Shown: positions 2,814 through 63,510 of the stretch, one piece after another
Numbering within the stretch: position 1 is the first letter of the stretch
How the letters are laid out: each line of letters starts with the position of its first letter
DNA from: Mustelus asterias
Taxonomy: Eukaryota
DNA length: 64,000 nucleotides
Assembly (NCBI RefSeq): GCF_964213995.1
Contig: NW_027590224.1
Span: forward strand, 434,001 to 498,000
Direction of reading: 5' to 3'
Position numbers and translations under genes: made by a program
The notes under the pieces: model-generated
Seen by the model: the letters and a program-made list of their open reading frames with translations, nothing else
What the model was told of the DNA's origin: nothing
Databases searched by the model: none

Positions 2814-2913
2814 ATGGAGCAAATGCTTAAACCCGAATGTCTTACGCTGGACCCACGTGCGGCGGGCGCCTCCAACACCTTCAACCACTGGTTGAAATGT
2901 TTTCAGGATTACC
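2814..2913 (+). pseudogene. gag: Truncated gag N-terminus (MEQMLKPECLTLDP...FNHWLKCFQDY) fused out of frame to pol
   Basis: ATG 60 nt after the LTR, Gypsy gag-like start, abrupt junction to the pre-RT sequence near 2913. Confidence 0.6.
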
Positions 2914-2937
2914 ACACCCTCCCTATTCCAGAATCTT

Positions 2938-5408: not shown

Positions 5409-5475
5409 CTGATGACCAATTGTTCTGTGTTTTTTTTTGTACCCCACCGGCCTTTGTCTTCAAAGGAGGGGTGAA

Positions 5476-9368: not shown

Positions 9369-9826
9369 CCCTGAGCTGCGGCACTCCCTCAGTACTGACC
9401 CTCTGACAGTGCGGCACTCCCTCAGTACTGACCCTCTGACAGTGCGGCACTCCCTCAGTACTGACCCACTGACAGTGCGGCACTCCCTCAGTACTGACCC
9501 TCTGACAGTGCTGCACTCCCTCAGTACTGACCCTCTGACAGTGCGGCACTCCCTCAGTACTGACCCTCTGACGGTGCGGCACTCCCTCAGTACTGACCTT
9601 CTGACAGTGCGGCACTCCCTCAGTACTGACCCTCTGACAGTGCGGCACTCCCTCAGTACTGACCCTCTGACGGTGCGGCACTCCCTCAGTGCTGACCCTC
9701 TGACAGTGCAGCACTCCCTCAGTACTGGCCCTCTGACAGTGCAGCACTCCCTCAGTACTGACCCTCTGACAGTGCAGCACTTCCTCGGCACCGACCCTCT
9801 GACAATGCAGCACTCTCTCTGTACTG
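9369..9826 (-). repeat. 33-bp minisatellite, ~14 copies, same monomer as the 30-63.5 kb array but opposite orientation
   Basis: (cactccctcagtactgaccctctgacagtgcgg)n. Confidence 0.95.
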
Positions 9827-9910
9827 ATACTCGGATGTCAGTCTGAATTTTGTGCTCAGCTCCCTGGAGTGACTCTGTGAACCCAGGACATTCAGACTCT
9901 GAACCACAGG
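9827..9910 (-). mobile_element. 5' head of a DeuSINE (SacSINE1/AmnSINE-like) running directly into the minisatellite
   Basis: Minus strand: gggttcacagagtcactccagggagctgagcacaaaattcagactgac..cagtacagagagagtgctgcattgtc, resembling the DeuSINE B-box/Deu-domain entry (recalled consensus). Confidence 0.65.
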
Positions 9911-24880: not shown

Positions 24881-24943
24881 CAGATCTCCAGACGCTCCAT
24901 CCTGATGCTCAGCTGCTGTTGTCACAAGGCCCCGTGCTTCACG

Positions 24944-25016
24944 TTAACAGGTCTCCCCTGTCAAAGGGACATCATTAGAGGTTTCATTTTGATTCATGCT
25001 GTATCTGGTTGGTTGC
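24944..25016 (-). CDS. B7/BTN-like gene, last coding exon (cytoplasmic tail RQPTRYSMNQNETSNDVPLTGETC*)
   Basis: Strong acceptor ttttttcctctcctAG; 73 nt completes the phase-2 codon from the TM exon and ends at TAA. Confidence 0.65.
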
Positions 25017-26593: not shown

Positions 26594-26702
26594 CGTCTTT
26601 GTCGCTTTCGGAATATGTAAATCCCAATTCCAGCAACAACAAAAACAGCAACAAGAATTCCGATTCCCAATCCAACTCTTGCTCCAGTAGAGGGTCCAGG
26701 TC
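26594..26702 (-). CDS. B7/BTN-like gene, transmembrane exon (GPGPSTGARVGLGIGILVAVFVVAGIGIYIFRKRQR)
   Basis: Acceptor ttctgtatctAG, donor GTGAGT, phase 1 to phase 2; hydrophobic helix followed by basic stop-transfer RKRQRR. Confidence 0.85.
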
Positions 26703-27974: not shown

Positions 27975-28319
27975 CTGTTACAGAGAGATAGACGAGATCA
28001 AATTGCTCCCAATAATATCTTGTACTCGTCCTCTTGTAAATCTGACACTGATACTGGTTCTGGTCTGACTCCCTGAGGTCCGAGAGCAGAACTGACCAGT
28101 TTCCTTGTTCCAGTTGATCTTTGAACAGCTTTGTTCTGTTTCTGAACCGTGGGTCTTGTTGTGTCAAATCATCGTTTCCATTGACCACTCTGTGTAAGAT
28201 ATCACCCTTGGTAGTTCCCCAGATTCCCAGTAAATCTGAGATGGTAACATTCCCTTTGTAGGTACAGGGCAGCACAACCTGCTCCCCAAGGAACCCAGAA
28301 ACTGGGACAGGCGAGTCAC
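27975..28319 (-). CDS. B7/BTN-like gene, IgV exon 2 (115 codons, phase 1-1)
   Basis: Acceptor tcttttccAG, donor GTGAG; V-set hallmarks LPC..W..RFRNRTKLF..GNWSVLLSDLRESD..YQC. Confidence 0.92.
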
Positions 28320-28640
28320 CTGGAAAAGATTGAAAGTATTTATAAATGGATAGAACCTCCTTGTTGAACTCCGTATCTGAGGGACAGGACGGTGAGACTC
28401 AGAAACAGAAATAACAATTCTGGGTAGTTGAAGGACCAGTTACAGGGAACAGTGACCCACACCACTCACTCTCACACAATCATTCTTTGGTAAAATATCA
28501 CACAGTATTTCAAACCTTCCAATGTTACTCGCTGTCTATCTAGTGAAACAACTGCAGAAATGTTCAAAAGACTCGAAATAATTTTAATAATACAGTCACT
28601 GCATCATAAATGTGGAATATCTGAAATAGAAACCTCTCAC

Positions 28641-28985
28641 CTGTTACAAAGAGATCGACTGAATCAACTTTCTCCAAGTGAATTTGCTTATCAATCCTCT
28701 TGTAAATCTGACACTCGTACTCGCTCTGGTCTGACTCCCTGAGGTCCGAGAGCAGAACTGACCAGTTTCCTTGTTCCAGTTGATCTCTGAACAGCTTTGT
28801 TCTGTTTCTGAACCGTGGGACTTGTTGTGTCAAATCATCGTTTCCATTGACAAACTTGTGTAAAAATTCACGTTTGGGTGTCCCCCAGATTACCTGTAAA
28901 TCTGAGACTGGGACATTCCCTTTGTAGGTACAAGGCAACACAACCTGCTCCCCAAGGAACCCAGAAACTGGGAAATGTGAGTCAC
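28641..28985 (-). CDS. B7/BTN-like gene, IgV exon 1 (115 codons, phase 1-1)
   Basis: Same splice signals and V-set motifs as exon 2; open frame. Confidence 0.92.
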
Positions 28986-29776: not shown

Positions 29777-29834
29777 CTGAAACAGCAGCAACAACACTGA
29801 GCAGCAGCAGGAGTAGTTTGTGGAAGGTGTGTCC
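29777..29834 (-). CDS. B7/BTN-like gene, signal-peptide exon (GHTFHKLLLLLLSVVAAVS-G), phase 0-1
   Basis: Acceptor ttttcttgttgcAG, donor GTAAGA; hydrophobic leader in the correct phase for the V exon. It has no ATG, so an upstream exon is required. Confidence 0.85.
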
Positions 29835-30084: not shown

Positions 30085-33000
30085 TGTCAGAGGGTGAGTG
30101 CTGAGGGAGTGCCGCACTGTCAGAGGGTCAGTACTGAGGGGGTACTGCACTGTCAGAGGGTCAGTACTGAGGGAGTGTCGCACTGTCAGAGGGTCAGTGC
30201 TGAGGGAGTGCTGCACTGTCAGAGGGTCAGTACTGAGGGAGTGCCGCACTATTCGAGGGTCAGCACTGAGGAACTGCCGCACTGTCAGAGGGTCAGTACT
30301 GAGAGAGTGCTGCACTGTCAGAGGGTCAGTACTGAGGGAGTGCCGCACTGTCAGAGGGTCAGTACTGAGAGAGTGCCTTACTGTCAGAGGGTCAGTACTG
30401 AGAGAGTGCCTTACTGTCAGAGGGTCAGTACTGAGGGAGTGCAGCCCTGTGGGAGGGTCAGTGCTGAGAGTGCCGCACTGTCAGAGGGTCAGTGCTGAGG
30501 GAGTGGCTCACTGTCAGAGGGAGTGCTGCACTGTCAGAGGGTCAGTACTGTGGGAGTGCCGCACTGTCAGAGGGTCAGTACTGAGGGAGTGCTGCACTGT
30601 CAGAGGGTCAGTACTGAGGGAGTGCCGCACTGTCAGAGGGTCAGTACTGAGGGAGTGCCGCACTGTCAGAGGGTCAGTACTGAGGGAGTGCTGCACTGTC
30701 AGAGGGTCAGTACTGAGGGAGTGCTGCACTGTCAGAGGTTCAGTACTGAGGGAGTGCTGCACTGTCAGAGGGTCAGTACTGAGGGAGTGCCGCACTCCCA
30801 GAGGGTCACTACAGAGGGAGTGCCGCACTGTCAGAGAGTCAGTACTGAGGGAGTGATGCACTGTCAAAGGGTCAGTACTGACGGACTGCCGCACTGTGAG
30901 AGGGTCTGTACTGAGGGAGCACCGCACTGCCAGAGGGTGTGCTGCACTGTCAGAGGGTCAGGACTGAGGGGGTGCCGCACTGTGGGAGGGTCAGTACTCA
31001 GGGAGTGCCGCACTGTCAGAGGGTCAGAGCTGAGGGAGTGCTGCATTGTGAAAGGGTCAGTACTGAGGGAGTGCCGCACTGTCAGAGGATCAGTACTGAG
31101 GGAGTGCCGCACTGTCAAAGGGTCAGTACTGAGGGAGTGCCGCACTGTCAGAGAGTCAGTGCTGAGTGAGTGCCGCACTGTCAGAGGGTCAGTACTGAGG
31201 GCGTGCTGCACTGTCAGAGAGTCAGTGCTGAGTGAGTGCCGTATTGTCAGAGGGTCAGTACTGAGGGAGAGCCGCACTGTCAGAGGGTCTGTCCTGAGGG
31301 AGCACTGCACTGTCAGGGGGAGTGCTGCACTGTCAGAGGGCCAGGACTGAGGGGGTGCCGCACAGTCAGAGGGTCAGTACTGAGGGAGTGCCGCACTGTC
31401 AGAGGGTCAGTACTAAGGGAGAGGTGCATTGTCAGAGGGTCAGTACTGAGGGAATGCCGTATTTTCAGAGGGTCAGTACAGAGGGAGTGCCCCACTGTCA
31501 GAGGGCCAGGACTGAGGGGGTGCCGCACAGTCAGAGGGTCAGTACTGAGGGAGTGCCGCACTGTCAGAGGGTCAGTACTGAGGGAGAGGTGCATTGTCAG
31601 AGGGTCAGTACTGAGGGAATGCCGTATTTTCAGAGGGTCAGTACAGAGGGAGTGCCCCACTGTCAGAGGGTCAGTGCTGAGGGAGTGCTGCACTGTCAGA
31701 GGTTCAGTACTGAGGGAGTGCTGCACTGTCAGAGGGTCAGAACTGAGAGAGTGCCCCACTGTCAGAGGGTCAGTATTGAGGGAGTGCCGCACTGCTAGAC
31801 GGTTGATAGTGAGGGAGTGCTGCACTGTCAGAGGGTCAGTATTGAGGAATTGCTACATTGACAGCGGGTCAGTACTGAGGGAGTGCCGCGCTGTCAGGGG
31901 GTCAGTCCTGAGGGAGCGCCAGACTGTCGAACGGTCAGAAGAGGGAGTGCGGCACTGTCAGAGGGTCAGTACTGAGGGAGCACCGCACTGTCAGAGGGAG
32001 TGCCGCACTGTCAGAGGGTCAGAACTGAGGGAGTGCCGCACTGTCAGAGGGTCAGTACTGAGGGAGTGCCGCACTGTCAGAGGGTCAGTACTGAGGGAGC
32101 ACCGCACTGTCAGAGGGAGTGCCGCACTGTCAGAGGGTCAGAACTGAGGGAGTGCCGCACTGTCAGAGGGTCAGTACTGAGGGAGTGCCGCACTGTCAGA
32201 GGGTCAGTACTGAGGGAGTGCAGCACTGTCAGAGGGTCAGTGCTGAGGGAGTGCTGCACTGTCAGAGGGTCAGTACTGAGGGAGTGCCGCACTATTCGAG
32301 GGTCAGCACTGAGGAACTGCCGCACTGTCAGAGGGTCAGTACTGAGGGAGTGCCGCACTATTCGAGGGTCAGCACTGAGGAACTGCCGCGCTGTCAGGGG
32401 GTCAGTCCTGAGGGAGCGCCAGACTGTCGAACGGTCAGAAGAGGGAGTGCTGCACTGTCAGAGGGTCAGTACTGAGGGAGCACCGCACTGTCAGAGGGAG
32501 TGCCGCACTGTCAGAGGGTCAGAACTGAGGGAGTGCCGCACTGTCAGAGGGTCAGTACTGAGGGAGTGCCGCACTGTCAGAGGGTCAGTACTGAGGGAGT
32601 GCAGCACTGTCAGAGGGTCAGTACTGAGGGAGTGCCGCACTGTCAGAGGGTCAGCATTGAGGGAGTGCCGCACTGTCAGAGGGTCAGCATTGAGGGAGGG
32701 CCGCACTGTCAGAGGGTCAGTACTGAGGAAGTGCTACGTTGACAGAGGGTCAGCACAGAGGGAGTGCCGCACTGTCAGAGGGTCAGTATTGAGGAAGTGC
32801 TACGTTGACAGAGGGTCAGCACAGAGGGAGTGCCGCGCTGTCAGGGGGTCAGTCCTGAGGGAGTGCCAGACTGTCAGAGGGTCAGTACTGAGGGGGTGCC
32901 GCACTGTCAGACGGTCAGTAATGAGGGAGTGCCGCACTGTCAGAGAGTCAGTACTGAGGGAGTGCTGCACTGTCAGAGGGTCAGTACTGAGGGAGTGCCG

Positions 33001-36000
33001 CATTGTCAGAGGGTCAGTGCTGAGGGAGTGCCTCACTGTCAGAGGGTCAGTACTGAGGGAGTGCCGCACTGCAAGACGGTTGATAGTGAGGGAGTGCCGC
33101 GCTGTCAGGGGGTCAGTCCTGAGGGAGCGCCAGACTGTCAGAGGGTCAGAAGAGGGAGTGCTGCACTGTCAGAGGGTCAGTACTGAGGGAGTGCCGCACT
33201 GTCAGAGGTTCAGTACAGAGGAAGTGCCGCACTGTCAGAGAGTCAGTACAGAGGGAGTGATGCACTGTCAAAGGGTCAGCACTGAGGGAGTGCCGCACTG
33301 TTAGAGGGTCAGTACTGAGGGAGCACCGCACTGCCAGAGGGAGTGCTGCACTGTCAGAGGGTCAGGACTGATGGGGTGCCGCACTGTGGCAGGGTCTGTG
33401 CTGAGTGAGTGCTGCACTGTGGGAGGGTCAGTGCTGAGTGAGTGCCGCACTGTCAGAGGGTCAGCACTGAGGGAATGCCGTACTGTCAGAGGGTCAGTAC
33501 AGAGAGAGTGCCGCACTGTCAGAGGGTCAGTCCAGAGGGAGTGCCACACTGTCAGAGGATCAGTACTCAAGGTGAGCTGCACTGTGAGAGGGTCAGTGCT
33601 GAGAGAGTGCCGCACTGTCAGAGGGTCAGTACTGAGGGAGTGCTGCACTGTCAGAGGGTCAGTACTGAGGGAGTGCCGCACTGTCAGAGGGTCAGTGCTG
33701 AGGGAGTGCCGCACTGTCAGAGGGTCAGTGCCGAGGGAGTGCCTTACTGTCAGAGGGTCAGTACTGAGAGAGTGCCGCACTGAGAGAGGGTCAGTACTGA
33801 GGGAGAGCTGCACTGTGAGAGGGTCAGTACTGAGTGAGTGCCGTATTGTCAGAGGGACAGTACTGAGGGAGAGCCGCACTGTCAGAGGGTCTGTGCTGAG
33901 GGAGCACTGCACTGTCAGGGGGAGTGCTGCACTGTCAGAGGGCCAGGACTGAGGGGGTGCCGCACAGTCAGAGGGTCAGTACTGAGGGAGTGTCGCACTG
34001 TCAGAGGGTCAGTGCTGAGGGAGTGCTGCACTGTCAGAGGGTCAGTGCTGAGGGAGTGTCGCACTGTCAGAGGGTCAGTGCTGAGGGAGTGCTGCACTGT
34101 CAGAGGGTCAGTACTGAGGGAGTGCCGCACTGTCAGAGGGTCAGTACTGAGGGAGTGCCGCACTATTCGAGGGTCAGCACTGAGGAACTGCCGCACTGTC
34201 AGAGGGTCAGTACTGAGAGAGTGCTGCACTGTCAGAGGGTCAGTACTGAGGGAGTGCCGCACTGTCAGAGGGTCAGTACTGAGAGAGTGCCTTACTGTCA
34301 GAGGGTCAGTACTGAGAGAGTGCCTTACTGTCAGAGGGTCAGTACTGAGGGAGTGCAGCCCTGTGGGAGGGTCAGTGCTGAGAGTGCTGCACTGTCAGAG
34401 GGTCAGTGCTGAGGGAGTGGCTCACTGTCAGAGGGAGCACCGCACTGTCAGAGGGAGTGCTGCACTGTCAGAGGGTCAGTACTGTGGGAGTGCCGCACTG
34501 TCAGAGGGTCAGTACTGAGGGAGTGCTGCACTGTCAGAGGGTCAGTACTGAGGGAGTGCCGCACTGTCAGAGGGTCAGTACTGAGGGAGTGCCGCACTGT
34601 CAGAGGGTCAGTACTGAGGGAGTGCTGCACTGTCAGAGGGTCAGTACTGAGGGAGTGCTGCACTGTCAGAGGTTCAGTACTGAGGGAGTGCTGCACTGTC
34701 AGAGGGTCAGTACTGAGGGAGTGCCGCACTCCCAGAGGGTCACTACAGAGGGAGTGCCGCACTGTCAGAGAGTCAGTACTGAGGGAGTGATGCACTGTCA
34801 AAGGGTCAGTACTGACGGACTGCCGCACTGTGAGAGGGTCTGTACTGAGGGAGCACCGCACTGCCAGAGGGTGTGCTGCACTGTCAGAGGGTCAGGACTG
34901 AGGGGGTGCCGCACTGTGGGAGGGTCAGTACTCAGGGAGTGCCGCACTGTCAGAGGGTCAGAGCTGAGGGAGTGCTGCATTGTGAAAGGGTCAGTACTGA
35001 GGGAGTGCCGCACTGTCAGAGGATCAGTACTGAGGGAGTGCCGCACTGTCAAAGGGTCAGTACTGAGGGAGTGCCGCACTGTCAGAGGGTCAGTACTGAG
35101 GGAGAGCTGCACTGTCAGAGGGTCAGTACTGAGGGCGTGCTGCACTGTCAGAGAGTCAGTGCTGAGTGAGTGCCGCACTGTCAGAGGGTCTGTCCTGAGG
35201 GAGCACTGCACTGTCAGGGGGAGTGCTGCACTGTCAGAGGGCCAGGACTGAGGGGGTGCCGCACTGTCAGAGGGTCAGTACTAAGGGAGAGGTGCATTGT
35301 CAGAGGGTCAGTACTGAGGGAATGCCGTATTTTCAGAGGGTCAGTACAGAGGGAGTGCCCCACTGTCAGAGGGCCAGGACTGAGGGGGTGCCGCACAGTC
35401 AGAGGGTCAGTACTGAGGGAGTGCCGCACTGTCAGAGGGTCAGTACTGAGGGAGAGGTGCATTGTCAGAGGGTCAGTACTGAGGGAATGCCGTATTTTCA
35501 GAGGGTCAGTACAGAGGGAGTGCCCCACTGTCAGAGGGTCAGTGCTGAGGGAGTGCTGCACTGTCAGAGGTTCAGTACTGAGGGAGTGCTGCACTGTCAG
35601 AGGGTCAGAACTGAGAGAGTGCCCCACTGTCAGAGGGTCAGTATTGAGGGAGTGCCGCACTGCTAGACGGTTGATAGTGAGGGAGTGCTGCACTGTCAGA
35701 GGGTCAGTATTGAGGAATTGCTACATTGACAGCGGGTCAGTACTGAGGGAGTGCCGCGCTGTCAGGGGGTCAGTCCTGAGGGAGCGCCAGACTGTCGAAC
35801 GGTCAGAAGAGGGAGTGCGGCACTGTCAGAGGGTCAGTACTGAGGGAGCACCGCACTGTCAGAGGGAGTGCCGCACTGTCAGAGGGTCAGAACTGAGGGA
35901 GTGCCGCACTGTCAGAGGGTCAGTACTGAGGGAGTGCCGCACTGTCAGAGGGTCAGTACTGAGGGAGCACCGCACTGTCAGAGGGAGTGCCGCACTGTCA

Positions 36001-39000
36001 GAGGGTCAGAACTGAGGGAGTGCCGCACTGTCAGAGGGTCAGTACTGAGGGAGTGCCGCACTGTCAGAGGGTCAGTACTGAGGGAGTGCAGCACTGTCAG
36101 AGGGTCAGTGCTGAGGGAGTGCTGCACTGTCAGAGGGTCAGTACTGAGGGAGTGCCGCACTATTCGAGGGTCAGCACTGAGGAACTGCCGCACTGTCAGA
36201 GGGTCAGTACTGAGGGAGTGCCGCACTATTCGAGGGTCAGCACTGAGGAACTGCCGCGCTGTCAGGGGGTCAGCCCTGAGGGAGCGCCAGACTGTCGAAC
36301 GGTCAGAAGGGGGAGTGCTGCACTGTCAGAGGGTCAGTACTGAGGGAGCACCGCACTGTCAGAGGGAGTGCCGCACTGTCAGAGGGTCAGAACTGAGGGA
36401 GTGCCGCACTGTCAGAGGGTCAGTACTGAGGGAGTGCCGCACTGTCAGAGGGTCAGTACTGAGGGAGTGCAGCACTGTCAGAGGGTCAGTACTGAGGGAG
36501 TGCCGCACTGTCAGAGGGTCAGCATTGAGGGAGTGCCGCACTGTCAGAGGGTCAGCATTGAGGGAGGGCCGCACTGTCAGAGGGTCAGTACTGAGGAAGT
36601 GCTACGTTGACAGAGGGTCAGCACAGAGGGAGTGCCGCACTGTCAGAGGGTCAGTATTGAGGAAGTGCTACGTTGACAGAGGGTCAGCACAGAGGGAGTG
36701 CCGCGCTGTCAGGGGGTCAGTCCTGAGGGAGTGCCAGACTGTCAGAGGGTCAGTACTGAGGGGGTGCCGCACTGTCAGAGGGTCAGTAATGAGGGAGTGC
36801 CGCACTGTCAGAGAGTCAGTACTGAGGGAGTGCTGCACTGTCAGAGGGTCAGTACTGAGGGAGTGCTGCACTGTCAGAGAGTCAGTACTGAGGGAGTGCT
36901 GCACTGTCAGAGGGTCAGTACTGAGGGAGTGCCGCATTGTCAGAGGGTCAGTACTGAGGGAGTGCCTCACTGTCAGAGGGTCAGTACTGAGGGAGTGCCG
37001 CACTGCAAGACGGTTGATAGTGAGGGAGTGCCGCGCTGTCAGGGGGTCAGTCCTGAGGGAGCGCCAGACTGTCAGAGGGTCAGAAGAGGGAGTGCTGCAC
37101 TGTCAGAGGGTCAGTACTGAGGGAGTGCCGCACTGTCAGAGGTTCAGTACAGAGGAAGTGCCGCACTGTCAGAGAGTCAGTACAGAGGGAGTGATGCACT
37201 GTCAAAGGGTCAGCACTGAGGGAGTGCCGCACTGTTAGAGGGTCAGTACTGAGGGAGCACCGCACTGCCAGAGGGAGTGCTGCACTGTCAGAGGGTCAGG
37301 ACTGATGGGGTGCCGCACTGTGGCAGGGTCTGTGCTGAGTGAGTGCTGCACTGTGGGAGGGTCAGTGCTGAGGGAGTGCTGCACTGTCAGAGGGTCAGGA
37401 CTGATGGGGTGCCGCACTGTGGCAGGGTCTGTGCTGAGTGAGTGCTGCACTGTCAGAGGGTCAGCACTGAGGGAATGCCGTACTGTCAGAGGGTCAGTAC
37501 AGAGAGAGTGCCGCACTGTCAGAGGGTCAGTCCAGAGGGAGTGCCACAATGTCAGAGGGTCAGTACTCAGGGTGAGCTGCACTGTGAGAGGGTCAGTGCT
37601 GAGAGAGTGCCGCACTGTCAGAGGGTCAGTACTGAGGGAGTGCTGCACTGTCAGAGGGTCAGTACTGAGGGAGTGCCGCACTGTCAGAGGGTCAGTGCTG
37701 AGGGAGTGCCGCACTGTCAGAGGGTCAGTGCCGAGGGAGTGCCTTACTGTCAGAGGGTCAGTACTGAGAGAGTGCCGCACTGAGAGAGGGTCAGTACTGA
37801 GGGAGAGCTGCACTGTGAGAGGGTCAGTACTGAGTGAGTGCCGTATTGTCAGAGGGACAGTACTGAGGGAGAGCCGCACTGTCAGAGGGTCAGTACTGAG
37901 GAAGAGCCGCACTGTCAGAGGGTCTGTGCTGAGGGAGCACTGCACTGTCAGGGGGAGTGCTGCACTGTCAGAGGGCCAGGACTGAGGGGGTGCCGCACAG
38001 TCAGAGGGTCAGTACTGAGGGAGTGCCGCACTGTCAGAGGGTCAGTACTGAGGGAGAGGTGCATTGTCAGAGGGTCAGTACTGAGGGAATGCCGTATTTT
38101 CAGAGGGTCAGTACAGAGGGAGTGCCCCACTGTCAGAGGGTCAGTGCTGAGGGAGTGCTGCACTGTCAGAGGTTCAGTACTGAGGGAGTGCCGCATTGTC
38201 AGAGGCTCAGTACTGAGGGAGTGCCTCACTGTCAGAGAGTCAGTACTGAGGGAGTGCTGCACTGTCAGAGGGTCAGTACTGAGGGAGTGCTGCACTGTCA
38301 GAGGGTCAGTACTGAGGGAGTGCCGCATTGTCAGAGGGTCAGTACTGAGGGAGTGCCTCACTGTCAGAGGGTCAGTACTGAGGGAGTGCCGCACTGCAAG
38401 ACGGTTGATAGTGAGGGAGTGCCGCGCTGTCAGGGGGTCAGTCCTGAGGGAGCGCCAGACTGTCAGAGGGTCAGAAGAGGGAGTGCTGCACTGTCAGAGG
38501 GTCAGTACTGAGGGAGTGCCGCACTGTCAGAGGTTCAGTACAGAGGAAGTGCCGCACTGTCAGAGAGTCAGTACAGAGGGAGTGATGCACTGTCAAAGGG
38601 TCAGCACTGAGGGAGTGCCGCACTGTTAGAGGGTCTGTACTGAGGGAGCACCGCACTGCCAGAGGGAGTGCTGCACTGTCAGAGGGTCAGGACTGATGGG
38701 GTGCCGCACTGTGGCAGGGTCTGTGCTGAGTGAGTGCTGCACTGTGGGAGGGTCAGTGCTGAGTGAGTGCTGCACTGTGGGAGGGTCAGTGCTGAGTGAG
38801 TGCTGCACTGTCAGAGGGTCAGCACTGAGGGAATGCCGTACTGTCAGAGGGTCAGTACAGAGAGAGTGCCGCACTGCCAGAGGGTCAGTCCAGAGGGAGT
38901 GCCACACTGTCAGAGGGTCAGTACTCAGGGTGAGCTGCACTGTGAGAGGGTCAGTGCTGAGAGAGTGCCGCACTGTCAGAGGGTCAGTACTGAGGGAGTG

Positions 39001-42000
39001 CTGCACTGTCAGAGGGTCAGTACTGAGGGAGTGCCGCACTGTTCGAGGGTCAGTGCTGAGGGAGTGCCGCACTGTCAGAGGGTCAGTGCCGAGGGAGTGC
39101 CTTACTGTCAGAGGGTCAGTACTGAGAGAGTGCCGCACTGAGAGAGGGTCAGTACTGAGGGAGAGCTGCACTGTGAGAGGGTCAGTACTGAGTGAGTGCC
39201 GTATTGTCAGAGGGTCAGTACTGAGGGAGAGCCGCACTGTCAGAGGGTCAGTACTGAGGGAGTGCCGCACTGTCAGAGGGTCAGTACTGAGGGAGAGGTG
39301 CATTGTCAGAGGGTCAGTACTGAGGGAATGCCGTATTTTCAGAGGGTCAGTACAGAGGGAGTGCCCCACTGTCAGAGGGTCAGTACTAAGGGAGTGCCGC
39401 ACTGTCAGAGGGTCAGTCCTGAGGGAGTGCTGCACTGTCAGAGGGTCAGAACTGAGAGAGTGCCCCACTGTCAGAGGGTCAGTATTGCCGCACTCCCAGA
39501 GGGTCACTACAGAGGGAGTGCCGCACTGTCAGAGAGTCAGTACTGAGGGAGTGATGCACTGTCAAAGGGTCAGTACTGACGGACTGCCGCACTGTGAGAG
39601 GGTCTGTACTGAGGGAGCACCGCACTGCCAGAGGGTGTGCTGCACTGTCAGAGGGTCAGGACTGAGGGGGTGCCGCACTGTGGGAGGGTCAGTACTCAGG
39701 GAGTGCCGCACTGTCAGAGGGCAGAGCTGAGGGAGTGCTGCATTGTGAAAGGGTCAGTACTGAGGGAGTGCCGCACTGTCAGAGGATCAGTACTGAGGGA
39801 GTGCCGCACTGTCAAAGGGTCAGTACTGAGGGAGTGCCGCACTGTCAGAGGGTCAGTACTGAGGGAGAGCTGCACTGTCAGAGGGTCAGTACTGAGGGCG
39901 TGCTGCACTGTCAGAGAGTCAGTGCTGAGTGAGTGCCGTATTGTCAGAGGGTCAGTACTGAGGGAGAGCCGCACTGTCAGAGGGTCTGTCCTGAGGGAGC
40001 ACTGCACTGTCAGGGGGAGTGCTGCACTGTCAGAGGGCCAGGACTGAGGGGGTGCCGCACAGTCAGAGGGTCAGTACTGAGGGAGTGCCGCACTGTCAGA
40101 GGGTCAGTACTAAGGGAGAGGTGCATTGTCAGAGGGTCAGTACTGAGGGAATGCCGTATTTTCAGAGGGTCAGTACAGAGGGAGTGCCCCACTGTCAGAG
40201 GGCCAGGACTGAGGGGGTGCCGCACAGTCAGAGGGTCAGTACTGAGGGAGTGCCGCACTGTCAGAGGGTCAGTACTGAGGGAGAGGTGCATTGTCAGAGG
40301 GTCAGTACTGAGGGAATGCCGTATTTTCAGAGGGTCAGTACAGAGGGAGTGCCCCACTGTCAGAGGGTCAGTGCTGAGGGAGTGCTGCACTGTCAGAGGT
40401 TCAGTACTGAGGGAGTGCTGCACTGTCAGAGGGTCAGAACTGAGAGAGTGCCCCACTGTCAGAGGGTCAGTATTGAGGGAGTGCCGCACTGCTAGACGGT
40501 TGATAGTGAGGGAGTGCTGCACTGTCAGAGGGTCAGTATTGAGGAATTGCTACATTGACAGCGGGTCAGTACTGAGGGAGTGCCGCGCTGTCAGGGGGTC
40601 AGTCCTGAGGGAGCGCCAGACTGTCGAACGGTCAGAAGAGGGAGTGCGGCACTGTCAGAGGGTCAGTACTGAGGGAGCACCGCACTGTCAGAGGGAGTGC
40701 CGCACTGTCAGAGGGTCAGAACTGAGGGAGTGCCGCACTGTCAGAGGGTCAGTACTGAGGGAGTGCCGCACTGTCAGAGGGTCAGTACTGAGGGAGCACC
40801 GCACTGTCAGAGGGAGTGCCGCACTGTCAGAGGGTCAGAACTGAGGGAGTGCCGCACTGTCAGAGGGTCAGTGCTGAGGGAGTGCCGCACTGTCAGAGGG
40901 TCAGTACTGAGGGAGTGCCGCACTGTCAGAGGGTCAGGACTGAGGGAGTGCAGCACTGTCAGAGGGTCAGTGCTGAGGGAGTGCTGCACTGTCAGAGGGT
41001 CAGTACTGAGGGAGTGCCGCACTATTCGAGGGTCAGCACTGAGGAACTGCCGCACTGTCAGAGGGTCAGTACTGAGGGAGTGCCGCACTATTCGAGGGTC
41101 AGCACTGAGGAACTGCCGCGCTGTCAGGGGGTCAGTCCTGAGGGAGCGCCAGACTGTCGAACGGTCAGAAGAGGGAGTGCTGCACTGTCAGAGGGTCAGT
41201 ACTGAGGGAGCACCGCACTGTCAGAGGGAGTGCCGCACTGTCAGAGGGTCAGAACTGAGGGAGTGCCGCACTGTCAGAGGGTCAGTACTGAGGGAGTGCC
41301 GCACTGTCAGAGGGTCAGTACTGAGGGAGTGCAGCACTGTCAGAGGGTCAGTACTGAGGGAGTGCCGCACTGTCAGAGGGTCAGCATTGAGGGAGTGCCG
41401 CACTGTCAGAGGGTCAGCATTGAGGGAGGGCCGCACTGTCAGAGGGTCAGTACTGAGGAAGTGCTACGTTGACAGAGGGTCAGCACAGAGGGAGTGCCGC
41501 ACTGTCAGAGGGTCAGTATTGAGGAAGTGCTACGTTGACAGAGGGTCAGCACAGAGGGAGTGCCGCGCTGTCAGGGGGTCAGTCCTGAGGGAGTGCCAGA
41601 CTGTCAGAGGGTCAGTACTGAGGGAGTGCCGCACTGTCAGAGGGTCAGTAATGAGGGAGTGCCGCACTGTCAGAGAGTCAGTACTGAGGGAGTGCTGCAT
41701 TGTCAGAGGGTCAGTGCTGAGGGAGTGCTGCACTGTCAGAGAGTCAGTACTGAGGGAGTGCTGCACTGTCAGAGGGTCAGTACTGAGGGAGTGCCTCACT
41801 GTCAGAGGGTCAGTACTGAGGGAGTGCCGCACTGCAAGACGGTTGATAGTGAGGGAGTGCCGCGCTGTCAGGGGGTCAGTCCTGAGGGAGCGCCAGACTG
41901 TCAGAGGGTCAGAAGAGGGAGTGCTGCACTGTCAGAGGGTCAGTACTGAGGGAGTGCCGCACTGTCAGAGGTTCAGTACAGAGGAAGTGCCGCACTGTCA

Positions 42001-45000
42001 GAGAGTCAGTACAGAGGGAGTGATGCACTGTCAAAGGGTCAGCACTGAGGGAGTGCCGCACTGTCAGAGGTTCAGTACAGAGGAAGTGCCGCACTGTCAT
42101 TGAGTCAGTACAGAGGGAGTGATGCACTGTCAAAGGGTCAGCACTGAGGGAGTGCCGCACTGTTAGAGGGTCAGTACTGAGGGAGCACCGCACTGCCAGA
42201 GGGAGTGCTGCACTGTCAGAGGGTCAGGACTGATGGGGTGCCGCACTGTGGCAGGGTCTGTGCTGAGTGAGTGCTGCACTGTGGGAGGGTCAGTGCTGAG
42301 TGAGTGCCGCACTGTCAGAGGGTCAGCACTGAGGGAATGCCGTACTGTCAGAGGGTCAGTACAGAGAGAGTGCCGCACTGTCAGAGGGTCAGTCCAGAGG
42401 GAGTGCCACACTGTCAGAGGGTCAGTACTCAGGGTGAGCTGCACTGTGAGAGGGTCAGTGCTGAGAGAGTGCCGCACTGTCAGAGGGTCAGTACTGAGGG
42501 AGTGCTGCACTGTCAGAGGGTCAGTACTGAGGGAGTGCCGCACTGTCAGAGGGTCAGTGCTGAGGGAGTGCCGCACTGTCAGAGGGTCAGTGCCGAGGGA
42601 GTGCCTTACTGTCAGAGGGTCAGTACTGAGAGAGTGCCGCACTGAGAGAGGGTCAGTACTGAGGGAGAGCTGCACTGTGAGAGGGTCAGTACTGAGTGAG
42701 TGCCGTATTGTCAGAGGGACAGTACTGAGGGAGAGCCGCACTGTCAGAGGGTCTGTGCTGAGGGAGCACTGCACTGTCAGGGGGAGTGCTGCACTGTCAG
42801 AGGGCCAGGACTGAGGGGGTGCCGCACAGTCAGAGGGTCAGTACTGAGGGAGTGCCGCACTGTCAGAGGGTCAGTACTGAGGGAGAGGTGCATTGTCAGA
42901 GGGTCAGTACTGAGGGAATGCCGTATTTTCAGAGGGTCAGTACAGAGGGAGTGCCCCACTGTCAGAGGGTCAGTGCTGAGGGAGTGCTGCACTGTCAGAG
43001 GTTCAGTACTGAGGGAGTGCCGCATTGTCAGAGGCTCAGTACTGAGGGAGTGCCTCACTGTCAGAGAGTCAGTACTGAGGGAGTGCTGCACTGTCAGAGG
43101 GTCAGTACTGAGGGAGTGCCGCATTGTCAGAGGGTCAGTACTGAGGGAGTGCCTCACTGTCAGAGGGTCAGTACTGAGGGAGTGCCGCACTGCAAGACGG
43201 TTGATAGTGAGGGAGTGCCGCGCTGTCAGGGGGTCAGTCCTGAGGGAGCGCCAGACTGTCAGAGGGTCAGAAGAGGGAGTGCTGCACTGTCAGAGGGTCA
43301 GTACTGAGGGAGTGCCGCACTGTCAGAGGTTCAGTACAGAGGAAGTGCCGCACTGTCAGAGAGTCAGTACAGAGGGAGTGATGCACTGTCAAAGGGTCAG
43401 CACTGAGGGAGTGCCGCACTGTTAGAGGGTCTGTACTGAGGGAGCACCGCACTGCCAGAGGGAGTGCTGCACTGTCAGAGGGTCAGGACTGATGGGGTGC
43501 CGCACTGTGGCAGGGTCTGTGCTGAGTGAGTGCTGCACTGTGGGAGGGTCAGTGCTGAGTGAGTGCTGCACTGTCAGAGGGTCAGCACTGAGGGAATGCC
43601 GTACTGTCAGAGGGTCAGTACAGAGAGAGTGCCGCACTGTCAGAGGGTCAGTCCAGAGGGAGTGCCACACTGTCAGAGGGTCAGTACTCAGGGTGAGCTG
43701 CACTGTGAGAGGGTCAGTGCTGAGAGAGTGCCGCACTGTCAGAGGGTCAGTACTGAGGGAGTGCTGCACTGTCAGAGGGTCAGTACTGAGGGAGTGCCGC
43801 ACTGTTCGAGGGTCAGTGCTGAGGGAGTGCCGCACTGTCAGAGGGTCAGTGCCGAGGGAGTGCCTTACTGTCAGAGGGTCAGTACTGAGAGAGTGCCGCA
43901 CTGAGAGAGGGTCAGTACTGAGGGAGAGCTGCACTGTGAGAGGGTCAGTACTGAGTGAGTGCCGTATTGTCAGAGGGTCAGTACTGAGGGAGAGCCGCAC
44001 TGTCAGAGGGTCAGTACTGAGGGAGTGCCGCACTGTCAGAGGGTCAGTACTGAGGGAGAGGTGCATTGTCAGAGGGTCAGTACTGAGGGAATGCCGTATT
44101 TTCAGAGGGTCAGTACAGAGGGAGTGCCCCACTGTCAGAGGGTCAGTGCTGAGGGAGTGCTGCACTGTCAGAGGTTCAGTCCTGAGGGAGTGCTGCACTG
44201 TCAGAGGGTCAGTACTAAGGGAGTGCCGCACTGTCAGAGGGTCAGTACTGAGGGAGTGCTGCACTGTCAGAGGGTCAGAACTGAGAGAGTGCCCCACTGT
44301 CAGAGGGTCAGTATTGCCGCACTCCCAGAGGGTCACTACAGAGGGAGTGCCGCACTGTCAGAGAGTCAGTACTGAGGGAGTGATGCACTGTCAAAGGGTC
44401 AGTACTGACGGACTGCCGCACTGTGAGAGGGTCTGTACTGAGGGAGCACCGCACTGCCAGAGGGTGTGCTGCACTGTCAGAGGGTCAGGACTGAGGGGGT
44501 GCCGCACTGTGGGAGGGTCAGTACTCAGGGAGTGCCGCACTGTCAGAGGGTCAGAGCTGAGGGAGTGCTGCATTGTGAAAGGGTCAGTACTGAGGGAGTG
44601 CCGCACTGTCAGAGGATCAGTACTGAGGGAGTGCCGCACTGTCAAAGGGTCAGTACTGAGGGAGTGCCGCACTGTCAGAGGGTCAGTACTGAGGGAGAGC
44701 TGCACTGTCAGAGGGTCAGTACTGAGGGCGTGCTGCACTGTCAGAGAGTCAGTGCTGAGTGAGTGCCGTATTGTCAGAGGGTCAGTACTGAGGGAGAGCC
44801 GCACTGTCAGAGGGTCTGTCCTGAGGGAGCACTGCACTGTCAGGGGGAGTGCTGCACTGTCAGAGGGCCAGGACTGAGGGGGTGCCGCACAGTCAGAGGG
44901 TCAGTACTGAGGGAGTGCCGCACTGTCAGAGGGTCAGTACTAAGGGAGAGGTGCATTGTCAGAGGGTCAGTACTGAGGGAATGCCGTATTTTCAGAGGGT

Positions 45001-48000
45001 CAGTACAGAGGGAGTGCCCCACTGTCAGAGGGCCAGGACTGAGGGGGTGCCGCACAGTCAGAGGGTCAGTACTGAGGGAGTGCCGCACTGTCAGAGGGTC
45101 AGTACTGAGGGAGAGGTGCATTGTCAGAGGGTCAGTACTGAGGGAATGCCGTATTTTCAGAGGGTCAGTACAGAGGGAGTGCCCCACTGTCAGAGGGTCA
45201 GTGCTGAGGGAGTGCTGCACTGTCAGAGGTTCAGTCCTGAGGGAGTGCTGCACTGTCAGAGGGTCAGTACTAAGGGAGTGCCGCACTATCAGAGGGTCAG
45301 TACTGAGGGAGTGCCGCACTGCTAGACGGTTGATAGTGAGGGAGTGCTGCACTGTCAGAGGGTCAGTATTGAGGAATTGCTACATTGACAGCGGGTCAGT
45401 ACTGAGGGAGTGCCGCGCTGTCAGGGGGTCAGTCCTGAGGGAGCGCCAGACTGTCGAACGGTCAGAAGAGGGAGTGCGGCACTGTCAGAGGGTCAGTACT
45501 GAGGGAGCACCGCACTGTCAGAGGGAGTGCCGCACTGTCAGAGGGTCAGAACTGAGGGAGTGCCGCACTGTCAGAGGGTCAGTACTGAGGGAGTGCCGCA
45601 CTGTCAGAGGGTCAGTACTGAGGGAGCACCGCACTGTCAGAGGGAGTGCCGCACTGTCAGAGGGTCAGAACTGAGGGAGTGCCGCACTGTCAGAGGGTCA
45701 GTGCTGAGGGAGTGCCGCACTGTCAGAGGGTCAGTACTGAGGGAGTGCCGCACTGTCAGAGGGTCAGGACTGAGGGAGTGCAGCACTGTCAGAGGGTCAG
45801 TGCTGAGGGAGTGCTGCACTGTCAGAGGGTCAGTACTGAGGGAGTGCCGCACTATTCGAGGGTCAGCACTGAGGAACTGCCGCACTGTCAGAGGGTCAGT
45901 ACTGAGGGAGTGCCGCACTATTCGAGGGTCAGCACTGAGGAACTGCCGCGCTGTCAGGGGGTCAGTCCTGAGGGAGCGCCAGACTGTCGAACGGTCAGAA
46001 GAGGGAGTGCTGCACTGTCAGAGGGTCAGTACTGAGGGAGCACCGCACTGTCAGAGGGAGTGCCGCACTGTCAGAGGGTCAGAACTGAGGGAGTGCCGCA
46101 CTGTCAGAGGGTCAGTACTGAGGGAGTGCCGCACTGTCAGAGGGTCAGTACTGAGGGAGTGCAGCACTGTCAGAGGGTCAGTACTGAGGGAGTGCCGCAC
46201 TGTCAGAGGGTCAGCATTGAGGGAGTGCCGCACTGTCAGAGGGTCAGCATTGAGGGAGGGCCGCACTGTCAGAGGGTCAGTACTGAGGAAGTGCTACGTT
46301 GACAGAGGGTCAGCACAGAGGGAGTGCCGCACTGTCAGAGGGTCAGTATTGAGGAAGTGCTACGTTGACAGAGGGTCAGCACAGAGGGAGTGCCGCGCTG
46401 TCAGGGGGTCAGTCCTGAGGGAGTGCCAGACTGTCAGAGGGTCAGTACTGAGGGAGTGCCGCACTGTCAGAGGGTCAGTAATGAGGGAGTGCCGCACTGT
46501 CAGAGAGTCAGTACTGAGGGAGTGCTGCATTGTCAGAGGGTCAGTGCTGAGGGAGTGCTGCACTGTCAGAGAGTCAGTACTGAGGGAGTGCTGCACTGTC
46601 AGAGGGTCAGTACTGAGGGAGTGCCTCACTGTCAGAGGGTCAGTACTGAGGGAGTGCCGCACTGCAAGACGGTTGATAGTGAGGGAGTGCCGCGCTGTCA
46701 GGGGGTCAGTCCTGAGGGAGCGCCAGACTGTCAGAGGGTCAGAAGAGGGAGTGCTGCACTGTCAGAGGGTCAGTACTGAGGGAGTGCCGCACTGTCAGAG
46801 GTTCAGTACAGAGGAAGTGCCGCACTGTCAGAGAGTCAGTACAGAGGGAGTGATGCACTGTCAAAGGGTCAGCACTGAGGGAGTGCCGCACTGTCAGAGG
46901 TTCAGTACAGAGGAAGTGCCGCACTGTCATTGAGTCAGTACAGAGGGAGTGATGCACTGTCAAAGGGTCAGCACTGAGGGAGTGCCGCACTGTTAGAGGG
47001 TCAGTACTGAGGGAGCACCGCACTGCCAGAGGGAGTGCTGCACTGTCAGAGGGTCAGGACTGATGGGGTGCCGCACTGTGGCAGGGTCTGTGCTGAGTGA
47101 GTGCTGCACTGTGGGAGGGTCAGTGCTGAGTGAGTGCCGCACTGTCAGAGGGTCAGCACTGAGGGAATGCCGTACTGTCAGAGGGTCAGTACAGAGAGAG
47201 TGCCGCACTGTCAGAGGGTCAGTCCAGAGGGAGTGCCACACTGTCAGAGGGTCAGTACTCAGGGTGAGCTGCACTGTGAGAGGGTCAGTGCTGAGAGAGT
47301 GCCGCACTGTCAGAGGGTCAGTACTGAGGGAGTGCTGCACTGTCAGAGGGTCAGTACTGAGGGAGTGCCGCACTGTCAGAGGGTCAGTGCTGAGGGAGTG
47401 CCGCACTGTCAGAGGGTCAGTGCCGAGGGAGTGCCTTACTGTCAGAGGGTCAGTACTGAGAGAGTGCCGCACTGAGAGAGGGTCAGTACTGAGGGAGAGC
47501 TGCACTGTGAGAGGGTCAGTACTGAGTGAGTGCCGTATTGTCAGAGGGACAGTACTGAGGGAGAGCCGCACTGTCAGAGGGTCTGTGCTGAGGGAGCACT
47601 GCACTGTCAGGGGGAGTGCTGCACTGTCAGAGGGCCAGGACTGAGGGGGTGCCGCACAGTCAGAGGGTCAGTACTGAGGGAGTGCCGCACTGTCAGAGGG
47701 TCAGTACTGAGGGAGAGGTGCATTGTCAGAGGGTCAGTACTGAGGGAATGCCGTATTTTCAGAGGGTCAGTACAGAGGGAGTGCCCCACTGTCAGAGGGT
47801 CAGTGCTGAGGGAGTGCTGCACTGTCAGAGGTTCAGTACTGAGGGAGTGCCGCATTGTCAGAGGCTCAGTACTGAGGGAGTGCCTCACTGTCAGAGAGTC
47901 AGTACTGAGGGAGTGCTGCACTGTCAGAGGGTCAGTACTGAGGGAGTGCCGCATTGTCAGAGGGTCAGTACTGAGGGAGTGCCTCACTGTCAGAGGGTCA

Positions 48001-51000
48001 GTACTGAGGGAGTGCCGCACTGCAAGACGGTTGATAGTGAGGGAGTGCCGCGCTGTCAGGGGGTCAGTCCTGAGGGAGCGCCAGACTGTCAGAGGGTCAG
48101 AAGAGGGAGTGCTGCACTGTCAGAGGGTCAGTACTGAGGGAGTGCCGCACTGTCAGAGGTTCAGTACAGAGGAAGTGCCGCACTGTCAGAGAGTCAGTAC
48201 AGAGGGAGTGATGCACTGTCAAAGGGTCAGCACTGAGGGAGTGCCGCACTGTTAGAGGGTCTGTACTGAGGGAGCACCGCACTGCCAGAGGGAGTGCTGC
48301 ACTGTCAGAGGGTCAGGACTGATGGGGTGCCGCACTGTGGCAGGGTCTGTGCTGAGTGAGTGCTGCACTGTGGGAGGGTCAGTGCTGAGTGAGTGCTGCA
48401 CTGTCAGAGGGTCAGCACTGAGGGAATGCCGTACTGTCAGAGGGTCAGTACAGAGAGAGTGCCGCACTGTCAGAGGGTCAGTCCAGAGGGAGTGCCACAC
48501 TGTCAGAGGGTCAGTACTCAGGGTGAGCTGCACTGTGAGAGGGTCAGTGCTGAGAGAGTGCCGCACTGTCAGAGGGTCAGTACTGAGGGAGTGCTGCACT
48601 GTCAGAGGGTCAGTACTGAGGGAGTGCCGCACTGTTCGAGGGTCAGTGCTGAGGGAGTGCCGCACTGTCAGAGGGTCAGTGCCGAGGGAGTGCCTTACTG
48701 TCAGAGGGTCAGTACTGAGAGAGTGCCGCACTGAGAGAGGGTCAGTACTGAGGGAGAGCTGCACTGTGAGAGGGTCAGTACTGAGTGAGTGCCGTATTGT
48801 CAGAGGGTCAGTACTGAGGGAGAGCCGCACTGTCAGAGGGTCAGTACTGAGGGAGTGCCGCACTGTCAGAGGGTCAGTACTGAGGGAGAGGTGCATTGTC
48901 AGAGGGTCAGTACTGAGGGAATGCCGTATTTTCAGAGGGTCAGTACAGAGGGAGTGCCCCACTGTCAGAGGGTCAGTGCTGAGGGAGTGCTGCACTGTCA
49001 GAGGTTCAGTCCTGAGGGAGTGCTGCACTGTCAGAGGGTCAGTACTAAGGGAGTGCCGCACTGTCAGAGGGTCAGTACTGAGGGAGTGCTGCACTGTCAG
49101 AGGGTCAGAACTGAGAGAGTGCCCCACTGTCAGAGGGTCAGTATTGCCGCACTCCCAGAGGGTCACTACAGAGGGAGTGCCGCACTGTCAGAGAGTCAGT
49201 ACTGAGGGAGTGATGCACTGTCAAAGGGTCAGTACTGACGGACTGCCGCACTGTGAGAGGGTCTGTACTGAGGGAGCACCGCACTGCCAGAGGGTGTGCT
49301 GCACTGTCAGAGGGTCAGGACTGAGGGGGTGCCGCACTGTGGGAGGGTCAGTACTCAGGGAGTGCCGCACTGTCAGAGGGTCAGAGCTGAGGGAGTGCTG
49401 CATTGTGAAAGGGTCAGTACTGAGGGAGTGCCGCACTGTCAGAGGATCAGTACTGAGGGAGTGCCGCACTGTCAAAGGGTCAGTACTGAGGGAGTGCCGC
49501 ACTGTCAGAGGGTCAGTACTGAGGGAGAGCTGCACTGTCAGAGGGTCAGTACTGAGGGCGTGCTGCACTGTCAGAGAGTCAGTGCTGAGTGAGTGCCGTA
49601 TTGTCAGAGGGTCAGTACTGAGGGAGAGCCGCACTGTCAGAGGGTCTGTCCTGAGGGAGCACTGCACTGTCAGGGGGAGTGCTGCACTGTCAGAGGGCCA
49701 GGACTGAGGGGGTGCCGCACAGTCAGAGGGTCAGTACTGAGGGAGTGCCGCACTGTCAGAGGGTCAGTACTAAGGGAGAGGTGCATTGTCAGAGGGTCAG
49801 TACTGAGGGAATGCCGTATTTTCAGAGGGTCAGTACAGAGGGAGTGCCCCACTGTCAGAGGGCCAGGACTGAGGGGGTGCCGCACAGTCAGAGGGTCAGT
49901 ACTGAGGGAGTGCCGCACTGTCAGAGGGTCAGTACTGAGGGAGAGGTGCATTGTCAGAGGGTCAGTACTGAGGGAATGCCGTATTTTCAGAGGGTCAGTA
50001 CAGAGGGAGTGCCCCACTGTCAGAGGGTCAGTGCTGAGGGAGTGCTGCACTGTCAGAGGTTCAGTCCTGAGGGAGTGCTGCACTGTCAGAGGGTCAGTAC
50101 TAAGGGAGTGCCGCACTATCAGAGGGTCAGTACTGAGGGAGTGCCGCACTGCTAGACGGTTGATAGTGAGGGAGTGCTGCACTGTCAGAGGGTCAGTATT
50201 GAGGAATTGCTACATTGACAGCGGGTCAGTACTGAGGGAGTGCCGCGCTGTCAGGGGGTCAGTCCTGAGGGAGCGCCAGACTGTCGAACGGTCAGAAGAG
50301 GGAGTGCGGCACTGTCAGAGGGTCAGTACTGAGGGAGCACCGCACTGTCAGAGGGAGTGCCGCACTGTCAGAGGGTCAGAACTGAGGGAGTGCCGCACTG
50401 TCAGAGGGTCAGTACTGAGGGAGTGCCGCACTGTCAGAGGGTCAGTACTGAGGGAGCACCGCACTGTCAGAGGGAGTGCCGCACTGTCAGAGGGTCAGAA
50501 CTGAGGGAGTGCCGCACTGTCAGAGGGTCAGTGCTGAGGGAGTGCCGCACTGTCAGAGGGTCAGTACTGAGGGAGTGCCGCACTGTCAGAGGGTCAGGAC
50601 TGAGGGAGTGCAGCACTGTCAGAGGGTCAGTGCTGAGGGAGTGCTGCACTGTCAGAGGGTCAGTACTGAGGGAGTGCCGCACTATTCGAGGGTCAGCACT
50701 GAGGAACTGCCGCACTGTCAGAGGGTCAGTACTGAGGGAGTGCCGCACTATTCGAGGGTCAGCACTGAGGAACTGCCGCGCTGTCAGGGGGTCAGTCCTG
50801 AGGGAGCGCCAGACTGTCGAACGGTCAGAAGAGGGAGTGCTGCACTGTCAGAGGGTCAGTACTGAGGGAGCACCGCACTGTCAGAGGGAGTGCCGCACTG
50901 TCAGAGGGTCAGAACTGAGGGAGTGCCGCACTGTCAGAGGGTCAGTACTGAGGGAGTGCCGCACTGTCAGAGGGTCAGTACTGAGGGAGTGCAGCACTGT

Positions 51001-63000: not shown

Positions 63001-63510
63001 AGAGGGTCAGTACTGAGGGAGTGCCGCACTGTCAGAGGATCAGTCCAGAGGGAGTGCCCTACTGTCAGAGGGTCAGTACTCGGGTCTGCCGCATTTTCAG
63101 AGGGTCAGTACAGAGGGAGTGCCGCACTGTCAGAGAGTCAGTACTGAGGGAATGCTGCACTGTCAGAGGGTCAGCATTGAGGGAGTGCCGCACTGTCAGA
63201 GGGTCAGTACTGAGGCAGCGCCGCACTGTCAAAAGATCAGTACTTAGTGGGTACTGCACTGTCAGAGGGTCAGAGCTGAGGGAGTGCCGCACTGTGGGAA
63301 GGTCAGTGCTGAGGGAGTGCCGCACTGTCAGAGGGTCAGTACGGAGGGAGCACCGCACTGTCAGAGGGTCAGTACTGAGGGAGCGCCGCACTGTCAGGGG
63401 GTCAGTACTGAGGGAGGGCTGCACTGTGGTAGGGTCAGTACTGAGGGAGGGCTGCACTGTGGGAGGGTCAGTGCTGAGGGAGTGCTGCACTGTGGGAGGG
63501 TCAGTACTGA
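30085..63510 (+). repeat. ~33.4-kb tandem array of a 33-bp monomer (~1000 copies) with higher-order repeats
   Basis: Consensus gtcagagggtcagtactgagggagtgccgcact, plus 20-bp deletion variants; blocks recur at exactly 4830 bp (ORFs at 39933/44763/49593 and 40697/45527/50357). Confidence 0.98.

Follow-up and report, generated by a model that had tools for sequence, protein, structure and literature searches.

The twin IgV exons analyzed here, located in a 64,000-nucleotide stretch of Mustelus asterias DNA (hereafter, the window), encode the two V domains of a single gene with the layout leader-V-V-TM-short tail (TM, transmembrane). This gene probably belongs to an array of variable B7-type surface proteins resembling chicken BG, in which segments are exchanged in the germline and alternative cassettes of the front face, formed by strands C-C' and F-G, have likely been retained.

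Structure and origin of the twin-V gene

The product of the gene is annotated in RefSeq as XP_078060173.1, 'junctional adhesion molecule-like'. Its V exons, VA and VB, are each 345 nt long, with AG/GT ends and phase 1 (Table 1). The 666-bp offset and the matching splice flanks described in the sequence-only reading proved exact, and its count of 29 differing residues was reproduced over 114 full codons (49 of 342 nt differ). The stretch of about 126 nt from VNGN to ESDQ, in which that reading saw two nucleotide differences, corresponds to codons 45-86, where V55D and R66K, both non-synonymous, are the only changes. The longest stretch with at most two differences spans 127 nt, a length equalled in none of 100,000 random placements. 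By contrast, 23 of the 29 residue differences fall within strands C-C' (29-45) and F-G (87-113), which comprise 44 of the 114 positions (Fisher p = 3e-7, an optimistic value because these regions were chosen after inspection of the data); the proposed clustering on one face was borne out when the differences were mapped on the predicted model of VA. Of the remaining six, residues 3 and 4 are N-terminal, 25 and 26 belong to the BC loop, and 55 and 66 to the core.

The flanks of VA and VB match each other only next to the splice sites, at 40 of 47 nt on the upstream side and 19 of 22 nt on the downstream side, and are unrelated further out, so the pair did not arise by a simple recent tandem duplication of 666 bp. 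Instead, nucleotides 98-271 of the VA-VB intron match the stalk-to-TM intron of single-V paralogues at 89%, and its final 47 nt correspond to a V acceptor. Because the intron combines these two pieces, the twin-V gene likely originated by fusion of two neighboring single-V genes, with subsequent loss of the stalk; a deletion would have joined the adjacent genes. The upstream flank of VA and the downstream flank of VB are those of a single-V gene, and the complete VA-VB intron is present only in the two twin-V genes. In multi-V proteins of other sharks, the stalk is often retained between the domains. The flanks of the twins are 11-15% diverged, and at this level the probability of finding no synonymous differences in 27.5 core sites is 0.01-0.04, which points to later homogenization of the core.

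Table 1. Features of the twin-V gene and its surroundings, in window coordinates unless a contig is given
Feature	Position	Strand	Remarks
First coding exon	outside window, contig C192:500103-500023		
Leader (signal peptide) exon, GHTFHKLLLLLLSVVAAVS	29777..29834	-	
V exon A (VA), N-terminal IgV domain, predicted B7/butyrophilin type	28641..28985	-	Pfam V-set E 1.4e-9
VA-VB intron, 321 nt	28320..28640	-	
V exon B (VB), membrane-proximal IgV domain	27975..28319	-	Pfam V-set E 3.6e-9
Transmembrane exon	26594..26702	-	hydrophobic stretch without charged residue; RKRQR stop-transfer
Cytoplasmic tail exon	24944..25016	-	in-frame TAA 24946-24944
Conserved-tail relict, untranslated now	24885..24943	-	interrupted at ~24885 by LINE-like insertion
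33-bp satellite array, 33.4 kb	30085..63510	.	within intron 1 of the twin-V gene

In the tail exon, the in-frame TAA ends the protein after 23 more residues, with the loss of the conserved C-terminus of the family. A premature stop in the same or an adjacent codon was observed at five places (window 24946-24885; C192:628.3k; C858:37.7k, 22.7k and 18.2k), three of these tails carrying the LINE-like insertion. The other two keep a full relict tail without it, and the stop is therefore likely older than the insertion. The LINE likeness was established by self-BLAST to other elements of the window; Pfam matched no family in the ORF of the insertion. The window also contains a Gypsy-like LTR retrotransposon (2455-5807; RT, RNase H and integrase, terminal repeats of about 300 bp), and the C858 copy of the gene contains a similar element in its TM-VB intron. 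Arrays of the same 33-bp unit, 33, 18 and 26 kb long (window 30085-63510; C192:575.5-593.5k; C858:79-105.5k), occupy intron 1 in three genes of the family and are absent from the other members; a short inverted copy is located at window 9377-9835.

Contigs from sequencing run X22 contain the VA-VB, VB-TM, TM-tail and leader-V joints, and run X2 also yielded the V-V joint; each joint is represented by a single contig, and neither run is on record as RNA. The X22 V-V contig, at a depth of 55.9, is matched in depth by the C858-type letters at 28676 and 28678 and hence likely comes from the C858 version of the gene rather than from that of the window.

Shark homologues and their genomic cluster

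Contigs C192 and C858 together carry all nine close V exons of the Mustelus genome, and the best match beyond these is 42% identical. Besides single-V genes, which have a stalk exon, the cluster includes two twin-V genes, orphan tails and one gene lacking a V exon, and all eight unique V exons are open. In the first homologue search, all 53 matches were shark proteins, as were 74 of the 93 in the second. The shark homologues contain one to three V domains and are clustered on one record per assembly. Deduplication of 85 domain matches and seven Mustelus exons left 83 distinct V domains from 12 shark species. Together with the nine exons and the gene maps, these domains bear out the earlier proposal of a germline-diversified paralogous family. 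No member from rays or chimaeras is named among the matches listed in word-limited searches. The 'pIgR-like/JAM-like' proteins of otophysan fishes (18 of the 93 matches) were rejected as the nearest kin, with only 29-38 bits per domain, compared to 55-69 bits for teleost butyrophilin/CD276-like proteins and more than 100 for the shark members. The gene and its relatives are already annotated automatically in RefSeq, under inconsistent names (CD276-, MOG-, BTNL2-, ICOSL-, SCN4B- and MXRA8-like); shark-directed searches of the open literature returned no treatment of these proteins as one family.

Contig C858 is collinear with C192:497-541k at 98-99.7% identity and with C192:450-463k at 94-99%, and differs from C192 by an extra single-V gene and by different TE insertions. 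As judged from these alignments, C858 is likely the other haplotype of C192.

Siglec-like (MAG/CD33/CD22-like) Ig exons are located at C192:237-300k, beside the V-gene cluster; those at 237-249k and 300k (L070, L069, L064) represent at least two partly duplicated genes. A simple pattern scan detected no V exon in the Siglec-like genes, and the Pfam scan of the neighborhood covered 150 of 426 unique ORFs. The white shark identifiers (121271-prefix) and catshark LOC119975151 are absent from the lists of MHC genes on chr19 and chr13 given in PMC10751288; in these, the two species checked, the family appears to lie off the MHC chromosome.

Several members show individual peculiarities. The gene P0119 (C192:414.5-423.8k) has a leader, stalk, TM and full tail, and no V exon. 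The V exon of L009 (C192:369.5k) lacks the usual first codons and acceptor, and its G strand is four codons shorter, as in members from horn shark and catshark. The V exons at C192:556k and 623k are identical over 342 nt and belong to genes with different tails, long and stop-truncated; a second acceptor at these exons adds DPYKSFP in the RefSeq models. The RefSeq model P0054, of the C858 twin gene (~54-60k), has about 240 extra N-terminal residues, probably a wrongly fused exon, which we take to resemble a retroviral envelope fragment. The Cetorhinus maximus model P0045 joins a V-TM gene of the family to one resembling PRDM7/9, which suggests that the two are neighbors in this species; PRDM7/9 had no match on C192 or C858.

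Domain class and signaling motifs

Both V domains match Pfam V-set, and the best PDB sequence matches are CD276, B7-H4 and MOG. In a structure search with the predicted model of VA (pLDDT 92, strands assigned by DSSP), the first 11 matches were all B7/butyrophilin domains, the best being B7-2 (Z 18.1, rmsd 1.3), whereas CAR, nectin-3 and JAML scored 15.6, 14.2 and 13.9. JAML, the closest kin according to the RefSeq name, ranked 27th in structure and was weaker in sequence as well (E 1e-8 vs 8e-17 for CD276), and was rejected as such. The B7-type V fold is thus seen both in the PDB sequence matches and in the structure search, and the domains are of the B7/butyrophilin/MOG type by sequence and by predicted fold.

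No IgC or B30.2 domain was detected by Pfam in two family proteins (P0001 and P0016), which contain V-set stretches only, and no C exon was found between VB and TM. A canonical B7 ligand, with V followed by IgC, was accordingly rejected, as was the butyrophilin architecture; the tails are just 24-56 residues long. There are no ITIMs in the tails, the 19 ITIM-like matches among 116 proteins being confined to the TM and V segments. In an alignment of 22 family proteins, the TM shows no charged residue. The C-terminus of the tail is conserved in 62 of the 116 proteins and, in the long-tailed paralogues that keep it, is tyrosine-poor. Signaling would proceed through a tyrosine-free tail, or not at all. 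A paired inhibitory/activating receptor of the CEACAM, Siglec or NITR type was rejected on these grounds (no ITIM tail, no charged TM residue).

The same motifs bear on the possibility of an arms race, in which a shark pathogen would hijack epithelial or immune receptors and the paralogues would serve as escape variants or decoys, by analogy with CEACAM. Variation of the CFG face has a precedent in the N domains of PSG and CEACAM described in PMC1185527, stop-truncated and V-less forms are present, and the cluster adjoins Siglec-like genes; against this stand the lack of paired inhibitory and activating forms and of significant positive selection (see below), and we regard such an origin of the diversity as quite unlikely.

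Segment exchange among V exons

Among seven unique full Mustelus exons, 397 of 1275 informative site pairs failed the four-gamete test, implying at least 12 breakpoints (Rm 12), and the compatibility of neighboring sites exceeded that in all shuffles (permutation, 0 of 20,000). Within three near-allelic pairs, 23 of 29 differences reuse states found in paralogues, compared to about 8% expected by chance. The V exon at C192 623k, identical to that at 556k, was excluded from all DNA statistics. Patchwork exchange between V exons, one of the alternatives offered by the sequence-only reading, is thus well supported, and germline gene conversion and unequal crossing-over are the likely sources of the mosaics.

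The V exons diverge 4-9 times more than their own introns (22/690 vs 35/4556 differences, p = 1e-6; 7/345 vs 6/2680, p = 2e-4; 31/342 vs 1/1567). Such an excess need not reflect selection, given that the donors of exons are more divergent than those of introns. Exchange would keep the core and the introns homogeneous and move short cassettes among paralogues.

Somatic diversification, by rearrangement or by AID-driven conversion from pseudogene donors, could draw on a single 81-nt V fragment at C192:398.6k. However, no RSS was found within about 500 bp of the exons and the J motif FGxG/WGxG is also absent; rearranging or VJ-type receptors (Ig, TCR, UrIg, NKp30) were rejected for this reason. 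In addition, WRC/GYW motifs are not enriched (10/42 vs 47/175, p = 0.69), and the mosaicism is present already in the genome assembly. We consider a somatic origin highly improbable.

The variable face

The GFCC' (C-C'/F-G) face is the ligand-binding face of B7 proteins. Across the 83 domains, the 17 outward-pointing residues of strands C, C', F and G had a mean entropy of 1.93 bits, compared to 0.50 bits at 10 outward positions of the back face (B, D and E; p = 5e-5), which are about as conserved as inward positions (0.48 bits), outward and inward being assigned by strand alternation and not by computed accessibility. The sites that differ between VA and VB are also the variable ones in the other 11 sharks (1.78 vs 0.80 bits). 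The variability of the family is located mainly on the C-C'/F-G face, the predicted partner-binding surface.

Species structure was stronger in the back face (0.285) than in the front face (0.171), and the bootstrap difference was above zero in 200 of 200 replicates. Trees were built from 59 domains, after removal of P0053, a frameshifted model, and of within-species near-duplicates (<7%). In the back-face tree, one group is formed by the domains of Mustelus (76/87), one by those of the horn shark (98/88) and one by those of the sawshark (99/95). In the front-face tree, the Mustelus domains fall into three groups, a single group being recovered in 0% of 200 bootstrap trees, and VA is placed near the first domains of carpet sharks (81/70). 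In AU tests, Mustelus monophyly was not rejected for the front face (p = 0.29 and 0.076), nor was the grouping of VA with carpet sharks for the back face (p = 0.094).

A further reading, at which these groupings hint but which we put forward tentatively and do not think probable, is that of a germline-polymorphic recognition system outside the MHC, in which alternative binding-face cassettes predating the divergence of several shark orders would have been maintained by balancing selection. An equally tentative part of it is that these cassettes would be shuffled onto a back face homogenized within species and would provide self-recognition or gamma-delta T cells with a variable code.

Selection and neutral change

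Synonymous and non-synonymous divergence rise and fall together along the twin exons. In BC-C-C', pN is 0.22 and pS 0.51; in FG-G, 0.37 and 0.36; in the pooled variable patches, 0.25 and 0.42; and in the core, 0.02 and 0. Given that the core has no synonymous differences either, its 'frozen' state reflects homogenization of DNA as well as constraint. In tree-free counts over eight exons, the ratio was 1.8-2.4 in FG-G (p = 0.13-0.21) and 0.44-0.58 in C-C'. The maximum likelihood GY codon model, with kappa held at its freely estimated value and partitions treated without internal recombination, put omega at 0.31 in the core (p = 0.047 in a test against 1), 0.60 in C-C' (p = 0.23) and 2.1 in F-G (p = 0.09). 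For FG-G, p was 0.025 in an all-pairs count, which is pseudo-replicated because it reuses the same changes.

Thus, dN/dS did not significantly exceed 1 in any tree-aware or tree-free count, and the strong diversifying selection invoked in the sequence-only reading was not upheld: dS in the patches of the twins is similar to or greater than dN, and the family-level omega for F-G is about 2, with p = 0.09-0.21. That reading had named a ratio at or below 1 in the variable patches as evidence against itself, and such ratios were found for the twin pair in C-C' and, at about 1, in FG-G, whereas the estimate for F-G in the family lies above 1 without significance. We interpret the positive-selection signal in these sequences as a hint, limited to the F-G segment.

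The parallel course of synonymous and non-synonymous divergence, omega not significantly above 1 and the signs of decay in the cluster (the V-less gene, orphan and nonsense tails, many TE insertions) are all compatible with a neutral mosaic, in which old paralogues drift at relaxed exposed loops, conversion homogenizes the similar parts, divergent patches escape conversion through their own divergence, and diversity as such is not selected. Relaxation of exposed sites, however, does not fit the 12-species entropies, where the outward back face is as conserved as the buried positions; all eight unique Mustelus V exons remain open, and the F-G omega is about 2 in three family-level counts, though about 1 for the twins. 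On balance, neutrality of the whole pattern seems to us unlikely, if a reading to be taken seriously. In the preferred BG-like reading, selection would likely prevent the erasure of old alternative front-face cassettes, and purifying selection would additionally maintain the back face.

Possible functions

By analogy with the role proposed for chicken BG, the proteins may act as variable ligands or receptors in contacts between immune cells. The functional alternatives partly overlap with this reading. One of them, that each variant binds in trans, via the GFCC' face, either to itself or to a matching paralogue, with exchange generating specificities for adhesion or allorecognition, fits a variable front and a conserved back face, a tyrosine-free tail with a C-terminus conserved in just over half of the proteins and the haplotype-like structural variation. 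The closest folds, however, are B7-type ligands and not the adhesion domains of nectin, JAM or CAR, and self-recognition of this kind is, in our view, improbable.

Sharks represent one of the earliest branches of animals possessing T cells, and, to our knowledge, little is known of their co-stimulatory ligands or of the ligands of their gamma-delta T cells. A polymorphic B7-like cluster, represented in 12 shark species and apparently evolving off the MHC in a BG-like manner, is a concrete candidate for such ligands. As a mode of evolution, segment exchange of this kind is not unusual among immune multigene families, being known from chicken BG and CEACAM/PSG; the interest of the family hinges on finding the ligand and proving selection.

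Comparison with known systems

According to PMC12841164, butyrophilins have the architecture IgV-IgC-TM-heptads-B30.2. The shark family resembles butyrophilins, MOG and the B7 family (CD86, ICOSL, PD-L1, CD276, B7-H4) in IgV sequence and fold, and differs from them by the lack of IgC and B30.2, by its multigene organization and by its mosaicism. Within the genome, no V exon outside the family is more than about 42% identical to its V exons.

The N domains of CEACAM are not known to have the canonical disulfide, whereas the shark V domain has it (two cysteines in each of the eight exons), is of the B7 type, and comes without ITIM/ITAM pairs. The likeness to the CEACAM/PSG N domains, as these are described in PMC1185527 and PMC7042247, consists in face-restricted divergence under concerted evolution.

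The DICPs of ray-finned fish, as presented in bioRxiv 2021.06.11.448072, are likewise clustered membrane proteins made up of V-type domains only, and the longer ones are proposed there to have originated by the joining of adjacent genes. Most DICPs have four cysteines per domain, distinct D1 and D2 types, and ITIM or charged-TM forms, none of which was seen in the shark family, and the proteins retrieved here included no named DICP. The extra cysteines are missing from some bowfin DICPs too, and the two families may therefore be distantly related.

The closest parallel is chicken BG, described in PMC5043582 as a B7/butyrophilin-related tandem array in which short cassettes are exchanged between V exons. 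The two systems share a V domain not followed by a C domain, then TM and tail, as well as copy-number variation and hybrid genes. They differ in that the BG cassettes, in the same account, occupy CDR1/CDR2-like loops, whereas the shark variation is located on C-C' and F-G, with some BC/C'' blocks; in the extra dimer cysteine that BG has in the CDR1-like loop; in the repeated cytoplasmic exons of BG, as opposed to one tail exon and one to three V domains; and in location, most BG genes being near the MHC (BG0 is unlinked) and the shark family lying by Siglec-like genes. If the BG-like reading is correct, the shark family would demonstrate either a repeated or a very ancient origin of B7-like arrays with cassette exchange.
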